Part shown: positions 7,960 to 27,659 of the stretch, one piece after another
How the letters are laid out: every line of letters begins with the position of its first letter
Numbering within the stretch: position 1 is the first letter of the stretch
The notes under the pieces: generated by a model
Seen by the model: only the letters and a program-made list of their open reading frames with translations
Told to the model about the DNA's origin: nothing
The model's database searches: none
From: a virus
Virus genome (UHGV): UHGV-0036156
DNA length: 33,121 bases
Reading direction: 5' to 3' (one strand)
Position numbers and translations under genes: made by a program

Positions 7960-8511
7960 GTGAATCGCACATCGCTTATTAAATTAATCCATGTCGCCCG
8001 TCGGGAGCTACAACTCGACGACGACACCTACCGTGCCTTTCTGATGCAGAACACGGGCAAAATCAGTTGCCGTGAGCTGACCGTCGCGCAACTGGAGCTG
8101 GTGCTCGATGCCATGAAAGAACGCGGTTTTAAGAAGCAGAATAAACACCCACGCCGTCGCTTTAATGGGCATGTAACGCCCCGCGAAAAGGTATTAAAAA
8201 TCTGGCAGCAAATGGCAGAAGACGGTTTTATTGCCGATGGCAGTGATACAGCACTGGATAAATACGTCGAACGACTGACAGCCAGACGTAATGGCGGACA
8301 GGGTGTTTCCACGCTGGCGTGGTGTCACGGAGAATCGTTACAAATTGTGCTTGAAACCCTGAAACAGTGGCACATCCGCTGTATCCGTGAAGCCTTTTCC
8401 CGTTATGGGCTCCCGTTGCCGGTCAGCCCGTCCGGGCGTGAACTGCGTGGCTATGATGCCATGACAGCAGCTTATGCCCGTGCAAGAAAAACACGGAGAC
8501 TGGCACAATGA
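7960..8511 (+). CDS. GemA-like protein (Mu gp16 family)
   Basis: Begins (M)NRTSLIKLIHVARRELQLDDDTYRAF, resembling my recollection of the Mu GemA N-terminus; immediately upstream of mor. GTG at 7960 after GAGAGGTGAG, or ATG at 7943. Confidence 0.7.
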   Translation: MNRTSLIKLIHVARRELQLDDDTYRAFLMQNTGKISCRELTVAQLELVLDAMKERGFKKQNKHPRRRFNGHVTPREKVLKIWQQMAEDGFIADGSDTALDKYVERLTARRNGGQGVSTLAWCHGESLQIVLETLKQWHIRCIREAFSRYGLPLPVSPSGRELRGYDAMTAAYARARKTRRLAQ

Positions 8512-8897
8512 CGCAGGATTTGTTTGGCGACTTTCAGGATGACAGTATCCTGGCTCATCTTGACAATGAATCCGGGGATACGTCACGATTTCCGGCACTG
8601 CTGGCGGAACTGAACGATGTGCTGCGTCAGGAACTGTCCCGGCTGGGCGTTGAACCTGCGCACTCTCTGGAGATTGTTGTGGCTATCTGTAAACATCTTG
8701 GCGGTGGTCAGGTCTATATTCCTCGTGGGCAGGTGCTGGATTCACTGGTTCGGGATTTACGAATCTGGAATGATTTTAACGGGCGCAATGTTCACGAACT
8801 GGCAATTCGTTATGGTGTGACGTTTAACACTGTCTATAAAGCCATCCGACGAATGCGGCGTATAAAGTATCGTCAGTATCAACCCCCTCTGTTTTAA
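8508..8897 (+). CDS. mor: Mor-like middle-operon transcription activator (Mor/C family)
   Basis: 129 aa, the length of Mu Mor; clear paralogue of the C-like protein at 10257 (shared GG-Q-YIPRG ... FNGRN ... YK-I-R-R motifs); last gene before the early terminator. Confidence 0.85.
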   Translation: MTQDLFGDFQDDSILAHLDNESGDTSRFPALLAELNDVLRQELSRLGVEPAHSLEIVVAICKHLGGGQVYIPRGQVLDSLVRDLRIWNDFNGRNVHELAIRYGVTFNTVYKAIRRMRRIKYRQYQPPLF

Positions 8898-8902
8898 ACA
8901 GT

Positions 8903-8927
8903 AAAGCCGGTTAATCCGGCTTTTTTT
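8903..8927 (+). terminator. Rho-independent terminator at the end of the early operon
   Basis: AAAGCCGG-TTAAT-CCGGCTTT hairpin followed by a run of seven T, 6 nt after the mor stop. Confidence 0.8.
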
Positions 8928-8979
8928 ACGCCCTCAATATTCTGTTGTGACGATAAAACGTTCATTACAGGAGGGCAAC

Positions 8980-9540
8980 ATGCCTGAGTTTTCCCCTGCA
9001 TTCCTTCATTCGCTGAATTTTGTTATACGGCCTGATGTTGAAGGTGGTTACGTTAATGATCCCACTGACCGTGGCGGCGAAACCAAATACGGCATTTCTG
9101 ACCGTCGCGACGGCGTTATTGATGGCAAAACCGATGTTAACGGTGACGGGAAGCCTGATACCCGTATTAAAGATTTAACCCACGAGCAGGCGGCGCAAAT
9201 CTACTGGCGTGATTACTGGCTGGCGGCAAAGTGTAACGAATGGCCTGATGGTGTTTCCTTATTCGTCTTTGATGCTGCCGTTCAGCACGGTGTTAAACGC
9301 GCAATTCAAATCCTCCAGGCGGCAGCAGGTGTTGATGATGATGGCATCGTCGGCAAAAACACTCGCGCAGCCGTACTGCGTGCCGATACTGACTGGCTGC
9401 TGTTGCAGTGTTTCCTGCGTCGTTCCCGCTATTACGCAGGGATTATCAAATCCAGTACCTCGCAGGGGAAATATCTGAACGGCTGGTTTAACCGTCTGGA
9501 TCTGCTCGCCAGCGCCTGCCGGGAGGTTCTGCATGGGTAA
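8980..9540 (+). CDS. Endolysin, glycoside hydrolase family 108 type
   Basis: N-terminal signature RPDVEGGYVNDPTDRGGETKYGI, longer C-terminal region. CAGGAGGG precedes the ATG at 8980; ORF track starts at an upstream GTG at 8947. Confidence 0.8.
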   Translation: MPEFSPAFLHSLNFVIRPDVEGGYVNDPTDRGGETKYGISDRRDGVIDGKTDVNGDGKPDTRIKDLTHEQAAQIYWRDYWLAAKCNEWPDGVSLFVFDAAVQHGVKRAIQILQAAAGVDDDGIVGKNTRAAVLRADTDWLLLQCFLRRSRYYAGIIKSSTSQGKYLNGWFNRLDLLASACREVLHG

Positions 9541-9751
9541 AGGGTGGGATGCGTCCTTTCGGTTTGGCAGACGCGAACGTTTACGACAGGAGGTGTTACA
9601 TCGGGAGGCCGGAGGTCCACCACCAAAGCCAATGGATTACACAGGGCACGATGGCACCCACGGGAGCTATTACATGAAAGGCTGGCAGTCAGTCGATATG
9701 CCAGAAATTATTCACCACTGCCAGCGTTACAGGGAAAAGCATCATGTTTAA
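9533..9751 (+). CDS. Small protein in the lysis cassette, function unknown
   Basis: ATG overlaps the endolysin stop (ATGGGTAA) with GGGAGG upstream; 72 aa, no transmembrane segment. Confidence 0.45.
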   Translation: MGKGWDASFRFGRRERLRQEVLHREAGGPPPKPMDYTGHDGTHGSYYMKGWQSVDMPEIIHHCQRYREKHHV

Positions 9752-10124
9752 GCGTTTCTGTTATTTGTTACCAAATTGTCTGCCGGTCATGTTGCTGGCG
9801 CTGATTCTGATTATCAGCTTGTTTTATGGTTTGCGGGCGGTGCTGTTCTGGAATGCTGCCGTTTTCAGTGTGGCGCTGTGCTTTACCGGCACTATTTTTG
9901 ATGATCTGTCCCGGACAGGAAAAATCCGACGTTATGCTTCTATTAATGCCATTGATTTTCTTGGTGGCCTCGTCGGGTTAAGTCTTTCGGCTATTGCAAC
10001 CGGGCTTTTAGAAGAAGCGCATCAGTTCACGATTTATGCTTTATCTGGCTTCTGTAGCATATGGTTTTGCTTTCGCCTCCATATCTGTCTGCGACGTTCA
10101 GTACCGTCTGGCGCGGAGGCATGA
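9744..10124 (+). CDS. Multi-pass membrane protein, candidate holin
   Basis: 126 aa with three to four hydrophobic segments, immediately downstream of the endolysin. Confidence 0.55.
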   Translation: MFKRFCYLLPNCLPVMLLALILIISLFYGLRAVLFWNAAVFSVALCFTGTIFDDLSRTGKIRRYASINAIDFLGGLVGLSLSAIATGLLEEAHQFTIYALSGFCSIWFCFRLHICLRRSVPSGAEA

Positions 10125-10246
10125 TGTACAGAAGATTCAGTAATGAATGTTCCGGCATGGCTACGTTGCTGATGGTGATGAAGGGTATCACAGTTATTGC
10201 ACTGCTTGCCGTAGTCACGGGGATCTGTCTGTTAGTTTTTCGCTGA
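10121..10246 (+). CDS. Small single-pass membrane protein (lysis accessory?)
   Basis: ATGA start/stop overlap with the preceding gene; about 41 aa with a C-terminal hydrophobic segment. ORF track frame 10061..10246. Confidence 0.4.
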   Translation: MMYRRFSNECSGMATLLMVMKGITVIALLAVVTGICLLVFR

Positions 10247-10256
10247 TGGGGGCAAA

Positions 10257-10667
10257 ATGACAAATCAGCAGGATTTATTTGAACATGATCCGGCTGTAAG
10301 CCAGTTAATGGATCATATCGACAATATACCGGCTCCTGAGCAGGAGGCCCGCTGGCCCCGCGCGCTGGTTGAGCTGGTTGACGTTCTGGAAACAGAACTG
10401 AAACGTCAGGGCGTGGATGATGCACGGAGCATAGCCCGTAAACAGGTGATGTCCTTATCATGGTTCCTGGGGGGGCGGCAGTATTACATCCCCCGGGGTG
10501 ATGCACTTCTGGCAGCGTTGCGGGATGATCTGATTTACTGCCAGTTTAACGGTCGGAACATAGAGGAGCTGCGGCGTGAACATCGTCTGTCACAACCGCA
10601 GATTTACAAGATTATTGCCCGGCAGAGAAAACTTCATTCACGGCGACATCAGCCCGATTTATTCTGA
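10257..10667 (+). CDS. C: C-like late-gene transcription activator (Mor/C family)
   Basis: 136 aa; paralogue of Mor with the same conserved motifs; sits upstream of the late operons. Confidence 0.85.
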   Translation: MTNQQDLFEHDPAVSQLMDHIDNIPAPEQEARWPRALVELVDVLETELKRQGVDDARSIARKQVMSLSWFLGGRQYYIPRGDALLAALRDDLIYCQFNGRNIEELRREHRLSQPQIYKIIARQRKLHSRRHQPDLF

Positions 10668-10678
10668 GTAACAGCAAT

Positions 10679-10698
10679 CAACCGGTGCAGGCCGGTTG
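10679..10698 (+). terminator. Candidate terminator hairpin after C
   Basis: CAACCGG-TGCAGG-CCGGTTG hairpin 10 nt after the C stop, followed by TGTTAATT; the U-tract is weak. Confidence 0.35.
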
Positions 10699-10740
10699 TG
10701 TTAATTAATAATAACCCCGTCTACAAATTCCCCTGAGTTA

Positions 10741-10766
10741 CCCTCCTTTTATTACCGAAGGAGGGT
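10741..10766 (+). promoter_or_regulatory. Hairpin pairing the Shine-Dalgarno sequence of the downstream gene
   Basis: CCCTCCTT - 9-10 nt loop - AAGGAGGG, ending a few nt before the ATG at 10770; the 8-bp perfect stem contains the ribosome-binding site. Confidence 0.45.
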
Positions 10767-10769
10767 TTC

Positions 10770-11198
10770 ATGAACGATTTTAAAAAACGTCTCCCCCGCA
10801 TCATCAGAACGCTTGCCATCGTGGTACTGGCGGCATGTGGTGGCTGGCAGTTGTCCGGCGATGGTGATTCATCGCTGGCTTCTGTTCAGTACCTTCCATA
10901 CACAGATCAGCACGGCGAACTGACTGTTTGCCTTAACCATCACGGTCCTGATATTCAGCAACGCCCTTACAGCTATGGTGAATGCATCATGCTGTTGAAA
11001 GCAGATTTGAAGCCTGTTTATGACACGTTAAATACCCATCTGAACAGGCCACTGACAGAGGAGCAAAAAAATGCACTGGCGGTGTTTATGTTCAGCGCCG
11101 GTTCTGGTGCTGTGCCCGCTCCCCGTAATAATCAGCTGCTGAATGATGATGTGTTACCGGTGCCGGGATTAATGCCGGGTATGTCGTCAGGGCTGTAA
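10770..11198 (+). CDS. Mu gp22-like lysozyme-fold protein (phage lysozyme family) with altered catalytic site, N-terminal SAR or lipoprotein-type signal
   Basis: YLPYTD...TVC...ECxxLLxxDL...ALxxFxFxxGxG aligns with P21 R-type SAR endolysins. N-terminus MNDFKKR + TLAIVVLAAC. Ala sits where the catalytic Glu is expected, and the protein is about 25 aa short at the C-terminus. Confidence 0.75.
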   Translation: MNDFKKRLPRIIRTLAIVVLAACGGWQLSGDGDSSLASVQYLPYTDQHGELTVCLNHHGPDIQQRPYSYGECIMLLKADLKPVYDTLNTHLNRPLTEEQKNALAVFMFSAGSGAVPAPRNNQLLNDDVLPVPGLMPGMSSGL

Positions 11199-11210
11199 AC
11201 AGGAGAGCGT

Positions 11211-11510
11211 GTGGATATTTATTCAGTGCTGACCTACTCGATAGGCAGTGGCAACACCATTGGTGGCATTTTGTGGTGGGCGGTGAGGCGTACATTTGCC
11301 AGTACGGAACGTGTGGAGCAAATCGAAAGCCGTTTAACCGCGCTTGAAACGAAGTGCGAAAACATGCCCAGTGCACAGGATTTACATGCTGTCCGGTTAC
11401 AAACCGCAGAAACCAATGGTGAAGTGAAAGCGATGAACCGGCACATACAGGTGCTGACCCATCAACTGGAGCTTTTGCTCGAAAAGGCGCTCGGAGAGAA
11501 CAACAAATGA
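11211..11510 (+). CDS. Releasin-like membrane-tethered protein (Mu gp25 position)
   Basis: 99 aa with an N-terminal hydrophobic segment (IYSVLTYSIGSGNTIGGILWWAV) and a coiled-coil-like remainder; directly follows the gp22-like gene. GTG start. Confidence 0.6.
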   Translation: MDIYSVLTYSIGSGNTIGGILWWAVRRTFASTERVEQIESRLTALETKCENMPSAQDLHAVRLQTAETNGEVKAMNRHIQVLTHQLELLLEKALGENNK

Positions 11511-11797
11511 TTGACGACATTCTGACGCAGGATCGCCGCCTGGTCATCCTGCGTTCACTGATGGACTGCAATAACGAGGCTAACGAATCCATTTTGCAGG
11601 ATTGCCTGGATGCTTACGGGCATAACGTTTCACGTGATGTGGTTCGTGGTCAGATTGACTGGCTGGCAGAACAGCAGCTTGTCACCGTGGAAAACCTGCG
11701 CGGCTTTTATGTCGTGACGCTGACCTCCCGTGGTCAGGATGTGGCTGAAGGCCGGGCTCGTGTTTCCGGTGTCAAACGTCCACGTCCCCGCTTCTGA
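11507..11797 (+). CDS. Conserved Mu-like protein (gp26 position), function unknown
   Basis: 96-aa ORF overlapping the previous stop, same strand. Confidence 0.55.
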   Translation: MIDDILTQDRRLVILRSLMDCNNEANESILQDCLDAYGHNVSRDVVRGQIDWLAEQQLVTVENLRGFYVVTLTSRGQDVAEGRARVSGVKRPRPRF

Positions 11798-11805
11798 ACG
11801 GAGGC

Positions 11806-12384
11806 ATGATGGACAGGAAAACACGGGGACGGGCTTCAAAAGTGGATTTGCTGCCGGAAAACGTGCGCAAAACACTGCATGAAATGCTGCGTGACAAGGC
11901 AATCCCACAGGCCCGCATTCTGGAAGAAATTAACGCCCTGATTGAAGATGCCGGACTGCCTGATGACATGAAACTCTCCCGTTCCGGCCTGAACCGTTAC
12001 GCGACAAACGTCGAACAGGTAGGCCATAACCTGCGACAGATGCGTGAAATGACGTCAGCACTGACCGCAGAACTTGGCGACAAGCCAATGGGGGAAACCA
12101 CAAAGCTGATTCTGGAAATGGCCCGCAGCCAGCTTTTTAAAGCCATGATGCGGCAAATCGAAAAACCGGAAGATGACGTGGATATTGAACTGCTGAAAAA
12201 CGCCATGCTGGCGGCACAGCGTCTGGAATCCACAGCAATGTCCAGCCACCGGCGCGAGAAAGAGATCCGCCAGGCATTCGCAGAAGAAGCGGCAAACGCT
12301 GTCAGCGAAGAACTGCGCGGGCAGGATGGCATCAGCGAAGAACTGGAGCAGCGTATCCGTGATGTGCTGCTGGGGAAAGCGTAA
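11806..12384 (+). CDS. Putative terminase small subunit (Mu D/gp27-like)
   Basis: 192 aa, helical and charged; positioned upstream of the large terminase as in Mu. Confidence 0.65.
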   Translation: MMDRKTRGRASKVDLLPENVRKTLHEMLRDKAIPQARILEEINALIEDAGLPDDMKLSRSGLNRYATNVEQVGHNLRQMREMTSALTAELGDKPMGETTKLILEMARSQLFKAMMRQIEKPEDDVDIELLKNAMLAAQRLESTAMSSHRREKEIRQAFAEEAANAVSEELRGQDGISEELEQRIRDVLLGKA

Positions 12385-12397
12385 AGGAGAAAATGTA

Positions 12398-12592
12398 ATG
12401 GCTGTTGAAACCAAAGAAAAAACGTCTGCGGAAATTGCCCTGAAACTCAAACCCATCGTCGAAGCGGCGCTGGCTGAGGAGGGCAATATTCATATCGTCA
12501 CAAAAGCCGAATCACTGTATCTGTTAATGCAGATTGTGGTTGGCCCGCGTATCGCGGGCCAGATCATCAGAGAGTCACAAATTAATCAGTAA
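12398..12592 (+). CDS. Small protein, function unknown, in an inserted segment between terminase genes
   Basis: AAGGAG 8 nt upstream of ATG at 12398 (ORF track frame 12326..12592); 64 aa. Confidence 0.5.
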   Translation: MAVETKEKTSAEIALKLKPIVEAALAEEGNIHIVTKAESLYLLMQIVVGPRIAGQIIRESQINQ

Positions 12593-12767
12593 TCATTGCC
12601 TCCAGCAACTGATAAATATGTTTTAACAACTCCCGTTCTGACTTCACATTTTGATCAGAACCGGCAAGACACGCTGGCTGTTTATTCGTATTCATGCCAG
12701 CGATAACAAAGTCACTTGCTATTTTTGCAATCTCAATTTTTTGGTCAATGGTCAGCTTTTCTTTCAT
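12582..12767 (-). CDS. Counter-oriented small protein (61 aa), function unknown
   Basis: Minus-strand ORF with AAGAGG 5 nt upstream of its ATG and a TATAAA -10-like element about 30 nt further upstream; local AT-rich composition. Confidence 0.5.
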   Translation of the reverse strand: MKEKLTIDQKIEIAKIASDFVIAGMNTNKQPACLAGSDQNVKSERELLKHIYQLLEAMITD

Positions 12768-12821
12768 AGCAACCTCTTTTTACTGATTAAAGCCTGAAAA
12801 TTTATACCGGATTTTTCACCT

Positions 12822-14477
12822 GTGAGCACCAAAGAAAGCAAACTTAAAGCCCTTCATGCGCCCCGCAAAATCGACCTGCGTAAGGAAGCCGAATTGCTTG
12901 GCGTGAATATCGTGACCGATATCGGGGAAGCACAGCCCCGCAATGAACCGGTTTTTCTGGGCTATCAGCGCCGCTGGTTTGAGGATGAAAGCCAGATTTG
13001 CATTGCTGAAAAATCCCGTCGTACCGGTCTGACATGGGCCGAAGCGGGCCGCAATGTCATGACGGCCGCAAAGCCGCGTCGCCGTGGTGGTCGCAACGTC
13101 TTTTATGTGGGTTCCCGTCAGGAAATGGCGCTGGAATACATCGCCGCCTGTGCCCTGTTTGCCCGCGCCTTTAACCAGCTGGCAAAGGCTGACGTCTGGG
13201 AGCAGACCTTCTGGGACAGCGACAAAAAAGAAGAAATCCTCACCTACATGATCCGCTTTCCGAATAGTGGATTTAAGGTGCAGGCGCTTTCAAGCCGCCC
13301 GTCTAACCTGCGTGGTTTACAGGGGGATGTGGTGATTGATGAAGCGGCATTTCATGAAGCCCTGGACGAACTCCTGAAAGCGGCCTTTGCGCTCACCATG
13401 TGGGGTGCCCGCGTGCGGATCATATCGACACATAACGGCGTCGATAACCTGTTTAACCAGTACATTCAGGATGCACGCGAGGGGCGCAAGGATTACAGCG
13501 TTCACCGTATCACGCTGGACGATGCCATCGCTGACGGGCTGTACCGGCGTATCTGTTATGTTACGAATCAGCCGTGGTCACCGGAAGCGGAGAAAGCCTG
13601 GCGTGATGGCCTGTACCGGAACGCGCCGAACAAAGAGAGCGCCGACGAGGAATACGGCTGTATTCCCAAAAAATCCGGTGGCGCTTACCTGTCCCGTGTC
13701 CTGATTGAAGCTGCCATGACACCCGCGCGGGATATCCCGGTTCTGCGTTTTGAAGCCCCGGACGATTTTGAATCGCTGACACCGCAGATGCGCCACGGTA
13801 TCGTTCAGGACTGGTGTGAACAGGAGCTGCTCCCGTTGCTCGATGCGCTGTCACCGCTCAATAAACACGTACTGGGCGAAGACTTTGCACGCCGTGGCGA
13901 CCTGACGGTGTTTGTGCCGCTTGCCATCACTCCAGACTTACGCAAACGCGAATGTTTCCGCGTGGAGCTGCGTAATGTGACCTATGACCAGCAGCGACAA
14001 ATCCTTTTATTCATTCTGTCCCGTTTGCCCCGTTTTACCGGCGCTGCATTTGATGCCACCGGTAACGGCGGTTATCTGGCAGAAGCCGCCCGTCTGATTT
14101 ATGGCCCGGAGATGATCGACTGTGTGAATCTGACCGCATCCTGGTATCAGGAGTGGATGCCAAAACTGAAAGGCGAGTTTGAAGCGCAGAACATCACGAT
14201 TGCCCGGCACCAGACCACACTTGATGACCTGCTCCACATCAAGGTGGACAAAGGTATTCCGCAGATTGATAAGGGGCGCACAAAAGATGAAGGCGGTAAA
14301 GGCCGACGACATGGCGACTTTGCCGTGGCGCTCTGTATGGCTGTCAGGGCGTCTTATATGAATGGTTTTGTTATCGACGAGGACAGCATACAGGCGCTGC
14401 CACCACGCCACCGTGGTGATGATGTTGATAACGATGATTTTGATGATTATCACCAGTTTGAACGAGGGGGCTGGTAA
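12822..14477 (+). CDS. Terminase large subunit (Mu E/gp28-like)
   Basis: 551 aa with an ATPase Walker B-like VVIDEAAF and a C-terminal nuclease-type region; precedes the portal gene. GTG start. Confidence 0.9.
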   Translation: MSTKESKLKALHAPRKIDLRKEAELLGVNIVTDIGEAQPRNEPVFLGYQRRWFEDESQICIAEKSRRTGLTWAEAGRNVMTAAKPRRRGGRNVFYVGSRQEMALEYIAACALFARAFNQLAKADVWEQTFWDSDKKEEILTYMIRFPNSGFKVQALSSRPSNLRGLQGDVVIDEAAFHEALDELLKAAFALTMWGARVRIISTHNGVDNLFNQYIQDAREGRKDYSVHRITLDDAIADGLYRRICYVTNQPWSPEAEKAWRDGLYRNAPNKESADEEYGCIPKKSGGAYLSRVLIEAAMTPARDIPVLRFEAPDDFESLTPQMRHGIVQDWCEQELLPLLDALSPLNKHVLGEDFARRGDLTVFVPLAITPDLRKRECFRVELRNVTYDQQRQILLFILSRLPRFTGAAFDATGNGGYLAEAARLIYGPEMIDCVNLTASWYQEWMPKLKGEFEAQNITIARHQTTLDDLLHIKVDKGIPQIDKGRTKDEGGKGRRHGDFAVALCMAVRASYMNGFVIDEDSIQALPPRHRGDDVDNDDFDDYHQFERGGW

Positions 14478-17782: not shown

Positions 17783-17968
17783 CCAGATACAGAGATAAAA
17801 TCACGCGATAAAGAATTTTTGAAGGTTCTGTGGCGTTTTTGAAGGGGTTTTGAAGGGGGTAGCGTCATGCATTTCCCTTCCCCTTTATCTTTCTCCTGCA
17901 GAATTACTAAAACTGGATAACCCCGCCTTTTCTCCCGTTCCCCGCACACTGGCTACTCACAAATCACG
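17783..17968. promoter_or_regulatory. Central intergenic region: candidate late promoter and candidate strong gyrase site equivalent
   Basis: 186-bp non-coding gap between G-like and I-like genes, about 17.7 kb from the left end. Three direct copies of TTTTGAAGG (17816-17825, 17836-17845, 17848-17856); ATAACCCCG at 17917-17925. Confidence 0.4.
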
Positions 17969-21617: not shown

Positions 21618-23101
21618 GCGATATTTCATTTAACGCGATCCCGTCAGATGTTCGCGTTCCCCTGACGTATATCGAATTTGATAACAGTAATGCCGTCAGC
21701 GGAACACCGGCACCCCGTCAGCGCGTGCTGATGTTCGGGCAAAGCGGAAGTAAAGCCAGTGCGGCACCAAACGTGCCTGTCCGTATCCGTTCCGGCTCAC
21801 AGGCCAGTGCGGCGTTTGGTCAGGGTTCCATGCTGGCACTGATGGCAGATGCATTCCTGAACGCTAACCGCGTGGCGGAGCTGTGGTGTATCCCGCAGGG
21901 GAACGGCACCGGTAATGCTGCTGTCGGTGAAATCTCACTGTCAGGAACGGCAGGCGAAAACGGCTCGCTTGTGACTTACATTGCCGGTCAGCGACTAGCG
22001 GTATCTGTCGCAGCAGGTGCAACGGGAGCGGCGCTGGCTGACCTGCTGGTTGCCCGAATCAAAGGCCAGCCTGATTTACCGGTGACGGCAGAAGTTCGCG
22101 CAGACAGCGGGGATGATGACACTCATGCAGATGTGGTTCTGAGTGCAAAATTTACGGGTGCATTATCTGCCGTGGACGTGCGCTGGAACTATTACGCGGG
22201 TGAAACCACCCCTTACGGGATTATCACGGCATTCAAAGCCGCCTCCGGGAAAAACAGCAACCCGGATATCAGCGCAAGTATCGCGGGAATGGGCGATCTG
22301 CAATACAAATATATTGTGATGCCCTATACCGATGAACCGAACCTGAATCTGTTACGCACTGAATTGCAGGAACGCTGGGGACCGGTCAATCAGGCTGATG
22401 GCTTTGCCGTGACAGTGCTGTCCGGCACGTATGGGGATATTTCCACGTTTGGTGTCAGCCGTAATGACCATCTGATTTCCTGTATGGGGATTGCCGGTGC
22501 ACCGGAACCGTCATATCTGTACGCCGCCACCCTGTGTGCCGTTGCCAGCCAGGCGCTTTCCATCGACCCGGCGCGTCCACTCCAGACGCTGACGTTGCCC
22601 GGAAGAATGCCGCCTGCGGTGGGGGATCGTTTCACCTGGTCAGAACGTAATGCGCTGCTGTTTGACGGCATCTCCACGTTTAACGTGAATGATGGTGGTG
22701 AAATGCAGATTGAACGCATGATCACGATGTACCGCACAAACAAGTACGGTGACAGCGATCCGTCTTATCTGAACGTGAATACCATCGCCACGCTGAGTTA
22801 TCTGCGTTATTCGCTGCGAACCCGCATCACGCAGAAATTCCCGAACTACAAGCTGGCAAGTGATGGCACCCGCTTTGCCACCGGTCAGGCCGTGGTGACG
22901 CCATCCGTGATCAAAACGGAGTTGCTGGCACTGTTTGAAGAATGGGAAAACGCCGGACTGGTCGAGGATTTCGACACGTTCAAAGAGGAGCTGTATGTGG
23001 CACGTAACAAGGATGATAAAGACCGTCTTGATGTGCTGTGCGGCCCGAATCTGATCAACCAGTTCCGCATTTTTGCGGCGCAAATTCAGTTCATTCTGTA
23101 A
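21614..23101 (+). CDS. Contractile tail sheath protein (Mu L-like)
   Basis: 495 aa, immediately upstream of the tube gene. Confidence 0.9.
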
Positions 23102-26171: not shown

Positions 26172-27659
26172 ATGTTTGAAGATGCTTTAAATGCCGTTAA
26201 TTCTGTCCGGGATAAAATCGGCGGTGGTAAGAAAACAACCGGCAAAGGCACGTTCCGTAACGTGCCGTTTCTCGTCATTGAGGAGCAAAAACAGGCTGGC
26301 GGACGTCGTCTGGTTAAACGCGAGTACCCGTTACGTGATACCGGCGGTGTCAATGACCTGGGGAAAAAACTTCGCTCCCGCACATTCAGCATCTGCATTC
26401 TGAACAGCAACGCAGAGACTGCCAGAGATGAAGCGGGTGCGTTGATGGATGCTCTTGATGCACCGGGCAGCGGCGAACTGGTGCATCCAGAGTTCGGCAC
26501 TGTGGACGTCATGGTGGATTCATGGGAATGCCGTACTAAAGCGGATGAACTGAATTATTACGCGTTCACCGTTACCGTTTATCCGTCGTTGCAGGATACA
26601 GCCCCGGACGCAGAAACAGACACCAGTACAGCCGTATCTGCGCAGGCCGTTGCTGTAACCGGTTCGCTGGGGGATACGTTGTCCTCTGTCTGGCAGACCG
26701 TAAAAGATGGCACAGCGGCGGCAACAGCCGTAATGGATGCCGTCACCGGTGTCATCGATGATATCTGTGATGCGGTGGATAATCTGGGGATCACCCAGAC
26801 TGTCAGCGGCCTGATGGGGTCACTTTCTGCAATGAAAGGTTCTGTGACCGGCCTGATAAATAAACCAGCCATGCTGACATCTTCACTGATGGGGGCGTTA
26901 TCCGGCGTTTCATCGTTATGCGATACCCGAACAGCATTTTCCACCTGGAACCGTCTGGCGCAGCGGTTCGAAAGCCGACATGCCTCCACCACTGACAGAC
27001 AAGGTGCCATTACCACTTCATACAGCAGCCCGGTTGCAGAAAAAAATATTGCCACACTGAACTACGTCATGCTGGCAGCAGCACAGACATACCGGGCGGA
27101 GGCAGCAAGCCAGGCACTGACTGCGGCACTGGATTCCAGCCGTCAGATGGATAATGCCGCCCGTGCACCGGCGCTGGATGTATCAGTCACAACAACCGGC
27201 ATCGCCAGTGGTGCCAGCAGCACATCGTCCACGGTCACACAAAGCCAGTTGCAGTTAACCGGGATAACCCCGGACGGCGGCTTTTCACCAGTATCCTTTT
27301 CAGACAGTAGCACAGCCACGCCCCCGGTATTTGAAAGCGTGTCCGATATCGAAAAAACAGCCGCCATGCTGGGGGCTGCACTGGATACCGTCATTCTGAC
27401 GGCATCTGAGCAGGGCTTTTCGACAGACAGCGTTCAGCTTACGCAACTGCGTCTGCTGGTTGTTGCCGACCTGGAAAAACGCGGGCTGCAACTGGCGGGC
27501 AGTGAAACGCACCGCCTGCCGGAGACGATGCCTGCAATGGTGGCCCTGTACCGTTACACAGGAAACAGCCGGAACTGGCAACGGCTGGCCCGCAGGAACG
27601 GTATCAGCAACCCGTTGTTTGTTCCCGGTGGTGTCAGTATTGAGGTGATTAATGAGTAA
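26172..27659 (+). CDS. DNA circularisation protein (Mu N/gp43-like)
   Basis: 495 aa, between tape measure and the baseplate hub as in Mu. Confidence 0.8.

Follow-up and report, generated by a model that had tools for sequence, protein, structure and literature searches.

A truncated relative of the Mu endolysin gp22 is kept under purifying selection as a probable pseudo-enzyme in a Mu-like prophage

In bacteriophage Mu, the lysis region is ordered mor-18-19-20-C-lys(22)-23/23.1-24-25-26-27-28, with lys encoding the signal-arrest-release (SAR) endolysin gp22, genes 23 and 23.1 the spanins, and gene 25 the releasin gp25. An engineered E37A substitution inactivates gp22 (Chamblee et al. 2022, PMC9239132), and basic residues at positions 6 and 7 make the enzyme dependent on the releasin (PMC9239132). 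The window analyzed here, the 33,121 nucleotides of virus genome UHGV-0036156, is the Mu-like prophage PP_SE11-7 of Escherichia coli SE11 (99.8% identity to NC_011415.1). The SE11 genome paper lists PP_SE11-7 as a Mu-like prophage and nothing more (PMC2608844), and we found it in just 3 of 5,426 complete E. coli genomes. At the position of Mu lys, the window carries an open reading frame (ORF), ORF142, at 10770–11198 on the plus strand (ATG start, 142 amino acids plus stop). We propose, with a probability of about 0.6, that ORF142 is a selected pseudo-enzyme that descends from a gp22-type SAR endolysin and serves as a non-enzymatic late envelope or lysis factor.

A preliminary description of this stretch had assigned ORF142 by eye to the lysozyme family of Mu gp22 and phage 21 (P21) R, and profile searches bear the assignment out. 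ORF142 matches Pfam PF00959 (Phage_lysozyme) at 43.2 bits (cutoff 22.3; E = 5.8e-11), over profile positions 6–93 of 125 only, and phrog_7 endolysin at 42.9 bits. It shares 40.5% identity with Mu gp22 over residues 8–114, and a phmmer search against PDB returned P21 R (3HDE) at E = 1.7e-10. The same description had read an alanine in place of the catalytic glutamate, beside an intact Asp and Thr. The HMMER alignment to P21 R sets A37 opposite E35, the counterpart of E11 in T4 lysozyme, D46 opposite D44, and T52 opposite T50. MAFFT with Mu gp22 and P21 R yields identical columns, with A37 aligned to E37 of gp22 and the two proteins collinear and gap-free from Met1 to Asp46. The codons are GCT at 10878–10880 (A37), GAT at 10905–10907 (D46), and ACT at 10923–10925 (T52). 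Both alignments agree with the earlier reading: the catalytic column of the window allele holds neither Glu nor Asp but Ala37, so that this allele naturally carries the residue that inactivates Mu gp22 when engineered at the same position.

ORF142 is also incomplete at its C-terminus. It is 29 residues shorter than gp22 (142 versus 171), and recognizable homology stops at about residues 114–125. The protein had been thought to end about 25 residues early; a C-terminal part is indeed missing, but its extent was underestimated. In all, 40–55 residues of the lysozyme C-terminal lobe are gone (PF00959 positions 94–125 are unmatched, and the last 40–55 residues of gp22 have no counterpart), and an unrelated Pro/Gly-rich tail of 17–27 residues takes their place. 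Behind the N-terminal segment, the protein thus consists of three parts, all on the plus strand: a variable Pro/Gly/Ser/Asp-rich linker (residues 29–38; 10854–10883), which replaces the catalytic helix and contains codon 37; a conserved lysozyme-derived core (residues 39–115; 10884–11114), predicted as a beta-hairpin plus three helices and bearing D46 and T52; and the Pro/Gly-rich tail (residues 116–142 plus stop; 11115–11198), unrelated to the C-terminal lobe and weakly constrained. No C-terminal hydrophobic segment is present in ORF142. Frameshift rescue of the C-terminus was considered and rejected, as the other two frames of 11081–11215 are stop-filled and hold no lysozyme-like sequence. 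Recent derivation from Mu lys by deletion was rejected as well: no Mu DNA similarity exists between C and gene 25, and near ORF142 only C itself and parts of gene 25 match Mu at the DNA level. An AlphaFold model, run on a shallow family alignment, contained a helix at residues 4–22, a beta-hairpin at 39–57, and three helices at 69–112. Its mean predicted local distance difference test score was 55 (64–82 in the core, below 50 for residues 1–38 and 114–142), Foldseek returned only weak P21 R matches (template modelling score about 0.28), and we drew no structural conclusion from it.

An alignment of 23 variants of the protein showed where constraint has been lost and where it persists. Position 37 is the most variable site of all (A/V/T/S/D/E). 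It is Val in the allele on most contigs and Ala in the window allele, and codon 37 alone gives Ala, Val, and Thr among E. coli and E. albertii alleles that are otherwise 98–99% identical; such variability could reflect relaxed constraint or diversifying selection. Across residues 29–38, which form the glutamate-bearing helix in active enzymes, 0 of 10 positions are invariant (mean entropy 1.05), and no acidic residue is conserved within them in any column of the alignment. The Asp column (46) is D/N/G and the Thr column (52) is T/A. Within the core (residues 39–115), 39 of 77 positions are invariant, among them the PY / G..TVC..H / D / Y...EC..L..DL motifs common to Mu gp22 and P21 R.

These patterns bear on whether ORF142 might still work as a muramidase, with some other acid residue in place of the canonical one. 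Most alleles keep D46 and T52, position 37 is Asp in some lineages and Glu in one, and public records annotate the protein as an endolysin or lysozyme. Against such an enzyme stand Ala37 in the window and Val37 in the most abundant allele, the lack of any conserved acid in residues 29–38, the change of D46 to Gly or Asn and of T52 to Ala in some lineages, the absence of profile positions 94–125, and the inactivity of Mu gp22 E37A (PMC9239132). We regard retained muramidase activity as extremely improbable. Rather, with its Glu column unconstrained, its catalytic helix now a linker, and its C-terminal lobe missing, ORF142 is predicted to be non-catalytic. Judged by its sequence, ORF142 fails the catalytic and fold-completeness features that define GH24 and should not be filed as an endolysin.

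We next estimated the ratio of nonsynonymous to synonymous substitution rates (dN/dS) between five lineages by the Nei-Gojobori method. For the whole gene, dN/dS was 0.13–0.24. Residues 26–115, comprising the core, gave 0.03–0.20 (Fisher p 1e-8 to 1e-16), the tail (116–142) gave 0.34–0.68, not significantly below 1, and neighboring genes gave 0–0.25. The dS of ORF142, about 0.5–1.7 between members, is comparable to that of its neighbors, and its product is the fastest-evolving protein of the block (54–89% amino-acid identity versus 75–100%). Between the window and locus L007 (L numbers denote the loci compared), the core has accumulated 4 nonsynonymous against 25 synonymous changes (dN/dS 0.03, p = 9e-15). 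Because the frame is open, the length is constant at 138–142 residues, and core dN/dS is 0.03–0.20, ORF142 is not a decaying pseudogene: its core and N-terminal segment are under purifying selection. The preliminary description had left open whether the ancestral gene is degenerating or repurposed. Degeneration does not hold, as frame and length are kept in all full-length variants and the core is constrained, and the strength of selection on the core favors repurposing.

A functionless deletion relic could also stay open if the frame were needed only for downstream late-gene expression, through translation, the promoter, or the ribosome-binding site of the adjoining DUF2730 gene. The nearly neutral tail, which ends just before that ribosome-binding site, fits this idea, as does the faster evolution of ORF142 relative to all neighbors. 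Translational coupling, however, selects against stops and not for amino-acid identity, and it accounts neither for a core dN/dS of 0.03 versus L007 nor for 39 of 77 invariant core positions across lineages with dS above 1. We consider a relic very unlikely and retain the interpretation of ORF142 as a selected pseudo-enzyme.

The distribution of ORF142 is narrow. We searched a word index of 5.8 billion protein clusters and, exhaustively by profile, 1.84 billion representatives. Homologues form five 90% clusters that collapse to one 50% cluster; they occur in E. coli, E. albertii, and Salmonella, on several hundred contigs in all. The next-best matches beyond these five are ordinary gp22-like enzymes with Glu, and a wider ORF142 family was rejected on the finding of only five clusters in these searches. 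Every full-length homologue has 138–142 residues; the only shorter entry (72 residues) is labelled partial, and no disrupted copy occurs among the homologues found. In one record, OSK94375.1 (166 residues), the start is extended upstream. Because the features of ORF142 recur in 23 sequence variants on several hundred contigs, they are no assembly accident. IMG/VR holds two copies, 99% identical. The sole match in a scan of GTDB representatives, in Chromohalobacter, was spurious and out of frame. Matches in Shiga toxin (Stx) phages (92% coverage) were set aside as a normal 166-residue SAR endolysin, followed there by spanin-like ORFs, namely an i-spanin-like ORF plus an overlapping lipobox ORF. 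Neither ORF142 nor DUF2730 matched an NCBIfam model, and no Rfam match was significant. Public records (NCBI, UniRef) name the homologues endolysin, lysozyme, or glycoside hydrolase family protein. We found no description of the ORF142 protein in the literature, nor of a dead, truncated, possibly lipidated endolysin kept in a phage lysis cassette.

How ORF142 is held in the envelope depends on its N-terminal export or anchor segment (residues 1–23; 10770–10838), which is homologous to the SAR segment of gp22. The segment comprises basic residues K5, K6, R7, R10, and R13, a hydrophobic run from T14 to A22, and a lipobox-like L20-A21-A22-C23. The KK-containing N-terminus and the hydrophobic segment ending in LAAC that had been noted earlier are therefore both present, with K5-K6-R7 and C23 collinear with gp22. 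ORF142 (14–30) and gp22 (10–26) have uncharged stretches of equal length, 17 residues, and GGWQ aligns to the GGYQ of Mu. The Gly-rich SAR core of gp22 is replaced in ORF142 by an aliphatic segment that carries the Cys of LAAC. Relative to gp22, mean Kyte-Doolittle hydropathy is 1.48 versus 1.19 and the G/A/S/T fraction 0.47 versus 0.59; across the family, the values are 1.48–1.61 and 0.38–0.50, versus 1.19–1.39 and 0.59–0.62 in known SAR domains. The lipobox pattern [LVI][ASTVI][GAS]C is matched by LAAC in four of the five clusters and by LAVC in one. L20 and A21 are invariant, C23-G-G-W-Q-L is invariant in 23 of 23 variants, and the Cys is followed by a variable linker of the kind typical of lipoprotein tethers. 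From these features we predict, with some reserve, that ORF142 is lipidated at Cys23. A glycine at position +2 predicts outer-membrane sorting of lipoproteins under the established Lol-avoidance rule. Since residue +2 of ORF142 is Gly, the lipidated protein would be predicted to reach the outer membrane.

Several points weigh against a lipidated, non-enzymatic ORF142. PROSITE PS51257 and G+LPP call for a run of 10 or more, or of 6+4, uncharged residues ahead of the Cys; with just 9 from R13 to C23, all five family members fail both. Both rules accept the control lipoproteins Lpp, Pal, T5 Llp, and lambda Rz1, and Mu gp23.1 satisfies PS51257 alone. In one allele, position −1 is Val (LAVC). The stretch 14–30 is collinear with the gp22 SAR segment, and by that token an uncleaved signal anchor appears equally possible. 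The rare, distant allele P0105 has Glu37 together with D46 and T52, making E-x8-D-x5-T formally complete. The poor AlphaFold model leaves the fold of the shortened core a prediction. Finally, none of 50,697 isolated phage genomes carries ORF142, which leaves the prophage lineage only putatively active.

The gene that adjoins ORF142 in every locus suggests what an uncleaved anchor might do. Starting 12 nt after the ORF142 stop, it encodes a DUF2730 protein (11211–11510, plus strand; PF10805, 59 bits) that is a type I (close) homologue of the Mu gp25 releasin, with 43% identity over its full length; in PADLOC it gave only a sub-threshold JetC match. ORF142 could accordingly be an uncleaved, SAR-like, membrane-tethered partner or substrate of this releasin with a non-muralytic task at the inner membrane, such as timing or triggering the release of the GH108 muramidase encoded upstream. 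The N-terminus collinear with gp22, the shared 17-residue stretch and GGWQ/GGYQ, the constant 12-nt spacing to the gene of a protein with 43% identity to gp25, and the failure of strict lipoprotein rules all fit such a partnership, and K6 and R7 occupy the positions that confer gp25 dependence in Mu (PMC9239132). Yet, compared with known SAR domains, the segment has a higher hydropathy and a smaller share of Gly, Ala, Ser, and Thr, and the derived, invariant Cys in L-A-A-C is left unexplained. In addition, gp25 showed no holin-like activity in Mu (PMC9239132), and DUF2730 occurs also in Mu-like phages without a SAR/gp22 endolysin (PMC9239132), of which the Klebsiella phage record Kp4866-3 is one example here. 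We rate an uncleaved, SAR-like releasin partner as unlikely, though worth keeping in view, and continue with ORF142 as a probable lipid-tethered pseudo-enzyme.

If ORF142 does not cut the cell wall, another enzyme should. The window gene order is GemA-Mor-GH108-18-19-20-C-ORF142-DUF2730(25)-26-27-(two small ORFs)-28, and it differs from Mu in two places: a GH108+PG_binding_3 gene is inserted directly after the mor–gene 18 intergenic block, and genes 23, 23.1, and 24 are missing between ORF142 and gene 25. All recovered loci share the synteny Mor-GH108-18-(19)-20-C-ORF142-DUF2730-26-27, and the remainder of the window prophage consists of standard Mu-like structural genes. The inserted gene (8980–9540, plus strand) encodes a GH108 + PG_binding_3 muramidase (Pfam 85.6 and 52.5 bits; phrog_315 endolysin) with the EGGY motif, no secretion signal, and a dN/dS of 0.02–0.12. 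Directly upstream lies a block (8895–8945, plus strand) nearly identical to the Mu mor–gene 18 intergenic region; this block is the region of the Mu middle promoter Pm, and GH108 is the first gene after it. The cytoplasmic GH108 muramidase is the likely working endolysin of the prophage, and it most likely took over cell-wall cutting from a gp22-type enzyme.

Four states found among Mu-like phages support replacement after a period of redundancy. Mu itself has gp22 only. The Yersinia phages vB_YpM_5 and vB_YpM_6 carry GH108 together with an intact 171-residue gp22 that has Glu and with homologues of genes 23, 24, and 25; their GH108 is 98.4% identical in amino acids to that of the window and sits at the same position (window 8895–9540; L016 4419–5061). 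Because both phages form plaques (PMC10434027), GH108 is compatible with plaque formation, there beside intact gp22 and spanin genes. Kp4866-3 has GH108 and DUF2730 and no gp22 homologue, and the SE11 type has GH108 with a gp22 homologue that lacks the catalytic Glu. The endolysin replacement suspected earlier is supported by these states and by the intact, strongly constrained GH108+PG_binding_3 gene upstream. Its distribution suggests that the GH108 gene moves among Mu-like phages as a mosaic unit.

The missing spanin genes raise the question of whether ORF142 stands in for them as an outer-membrane lipoprotein that disrupts the outer membrane after wall degradation. The junction of ORF142 and gene 25 is precisely where genes 23/23.1/24 are missing, ORF142 is apparently expressed late (judging by its promoter motif), and it has a Pro/Gly-rich C-terminal tail. 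It is also the sole credible lipobox ORF of the lysis region. A relaxed lipobox scan, which recovered as positive controls the o-spanin ORFs, established or putative, of Mu (gp23.1), vB_YpM_5, and an Stx-phage-borne Mu-like element, returned nothing in SE11-type loci except ORF142 and one alternative-frame ORF inside the GH108 gene. We rejected the latter as a spanin. This candidate embedded o-spanin (9341–9478, plus strand), which has a PILTGC lipobox and a Pro-rich end and recurs in most loci, evolves like non-coding sequence: dN/dS is at or above about 1, synonymous change in GH108 is not depressed across it, it has a stop and a lost lipobox in L010, and it occurs in vB_YpM_5 beside gp23/gp23.1 homologues. 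It is probably spurious. Several points count against a spanin substitute. No i-spanin-type partner ORF, overlapping or adjacent, was found in 8400–12900, and the DUF2730 releasin, predicted to be N-out/C-in with its bulk in the cytoplasm (PMC9239132), does not supply one. ORF142 has no C-terminal transmembrane domain (TMD), unlike unimolecular spanins, and constraint is lowest in its tail. Many phages lack recognizable spanins in any case. We judge a spanin substitute improbable.

Sequence elements upstream of ORF142 point to its expression as a late gene. The preceding gene (10257–10667, plus strand) encodes the C-type late transcription activator of the Mor family (76.6% DNA identity to Mu C). 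It is followed by a terminator-like hairpin (10679–10698, plus strand) that would end the middle (C) transcript; an equivalent hairpin follows Mu C. Next comes the motif ATAACCCCG (10711–10719, plus strand; 4 matches versus 0.43 expected), a putative Plys-type element that is probably a C-dependent late promoter like those of Mu. Copies of the 9-mer ATAAYCCCG lie at 10711–10719, 17917–17925, and 27264–27272 on the plus strand and at 22216–22224 on the minus strand. The three plus-strand copies are identical: one precedes ORF142, one precedes the protease gene by about 67 nt, and one falls within the gene for the DNA-circularization protein. A CCATAATCCCGC block occupies the equivalent place ahead of Mu lys and of the ORF142 homologues in loci L003, L004, and L010. 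The 9-mer copies are probably the C-dependent late promoters of the prophage. Between promoter motif and start codon, a hairpin (10734–10770, plus strand; −16.6 kcal/mol, z = −3.4) pairs a CCCUCCUU tract with the Shine-Dalgarno sequence AAGGAGGG downstream of it. All 5 lineages retain the hairpin, mostly via C/U changes opposite G, and by eye it has no obvious equivalent upstream of Mu lys. Its conservation suggests that translation of ORF142 is throttled or regulated.

Taken together, these data suggest the following model. ORF142 would be made as the first product of a C-dependent late lys operon, with DUF2730 encoded 12 nt downstream. It would be exported by its N-terminal signal and tethered to a membrane, most likely the outer membrane and through a lipid at Cys23. 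The half-lysozyme core would then face the periplasm on a short flexible tether and serve there to bind peptidoglycan or a protein partner, while cell-wall hydrolysis would fall to the cytoplasmic GH108 muramidase encoded behind the middle promoter. Because ORF142 sits in a late operon beside a releasin homologue, we favor a non-enzymatic accessory role in the late envelope or lysis program. The role could be envelope destabilization in a phage without a recognizable spanin, or that of a releasin partner or substrate. A more ambitious proposal, which we put forward as speculation, is that the gp22 remnant and DUF2730 form an exapted lysis module that triggers GH108 release or replaces spanins at the outer membrane.

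A cytoplasmic endolysin also raises the matter of a holin. Besides ORF142, the only small membrane proteins encoded in the region are DUF2730 and the counterparts of gp19 and gp20. Homologues of Mu genes 18, 19, and 20 (9533–10246, plus strand) encode proteins of 72 residues, 126 residues with multiple TMDs, and 41 residues with a single TMD, respectively, and the latter two are the only holin candidates in the lysis region of the window. The gp19 homologue is deleted in L003 (5264–5485) and L010 (1178–1300), which represent Salmonella diarizonae and one metagenomic lineage, and a gp20-like single-TMD ORF of about 40 residues is always kept. Because gp19 is lost in two lineages and the gp20-like protein is always present, the latter is the more likely candidate if a holin serves the GH108 enzyme.

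Two further places in the block vary. Two small convergent ORFs, at 12398–12592 (plus strand, 64 residues) and 12582–12767 (minus strand, 61 residues), occupy the interval from gp27 to the large terminase, which is empty in Mu. They belong to phrog_21398 and phrog_25148, groups of unknown function, and neither has a PADLOC match. Present in L007, L008, and L004 and replaced or absent in L003 and L005, they mark a variable moron slot. In L004 (5330–5848) and L010 (1729–2262), an extra ORF pair is inserted after C, ahead of both the late promoter motif and ORF142, and consists of a minus-strand ORF of 108–113 residues and a plus-strand ORF of 63 residues.

The case is clear and testable, though its distribution is narrow, and it matters in several ways. 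ORF142 homologues, which lack the catalytic Glu and a third of the fold, are mislabelled in hundreds of assemblies of E. coli, E. albertii, and Salmonella. The series from Mu through vB_YpM_5/6 and the SE11 lineage to Kp4866-3 would be a clear example of enzyme replacement in which the displaced gene is retained as a pseudo-enzyme. The Mu releasin paper asked what DUF2730 proteins do in Mu-like phages without SAR endolysins (PMC9239132). The window lineage offers a natural experiment on this question, as it combines a type I releasin homologue beside a selected gp22 without Glu, a GH108 enzyme, and no recognizable spanin. The exapted gp22–DUF2730 module, if it exists, would be a lysis device outside the holin/endolysin/spanin scheme.

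Among known systems, the closest is Mu gp22 (Lys), a GH24/T4-lysozyme SAR endolysin. Like ORF142, it is encoded directly behind C and the late promoter and ahead of gene 25, and it has basic positions 6/7, a 17-residue uncharged segment ending in GG[YW]Q, and D46 and T52 at identical positions. Unlike gp22, ORF142 has no Glu37, a linker in place of the catalytic helix, a lipobox Cys, no 40–55 C-terminal residues, and no spanin genes after it. Among solved structures, the nearest relatives are phage 21 R (3HDE/3HDF) and E. coli RrrD (4ZPU), at E about 2e-10. They share the core motifs PY.D..G..TVC.GH.G.D / EC..LL..DL with ORF142 but are full two-lobe enzymes with an E35-D44-T50 triad, and ORF142 aligns to chain residues 28–113 of 165 only.

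Precedents for non-lytic use of such folds come from outside the phage lysis cassette. The SpmX muramidase domain (6H9D) is among the weak sequence and fold matches of ORF142, and SpmX is a precedent for exaptation: a phage-type GH24 domain co-opted for a non-lytic role. SpmX, a cellular polarity protein, keeps the whole fold and the catalytic Glu, whereas ORF142 is truncated, lacks Glu, and still belongs to the late operon of a phage. NlpD and EnvC, degenerate LytM factors, are hydrolase folds without catalytic residues that serve as binding or activating modules, and NlpD is an outer-membrane lipoprotein. Their fold is unrelated, they are host-encoded, and their activation of amidases is known, so that the likeness to ORF142 is by analogy only. 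Closer in setting are the o-spanins Mu gp23.1 and lambda Rz1, which, like ORF142, are late phage lysis-cassette proteins with a lipobox and Pro-rich sequence. They differ in being small, in having no lysozyme-derived domain, and in the overlapping or embedding gene of their i-spanin partner, none of which applies to ORF142.

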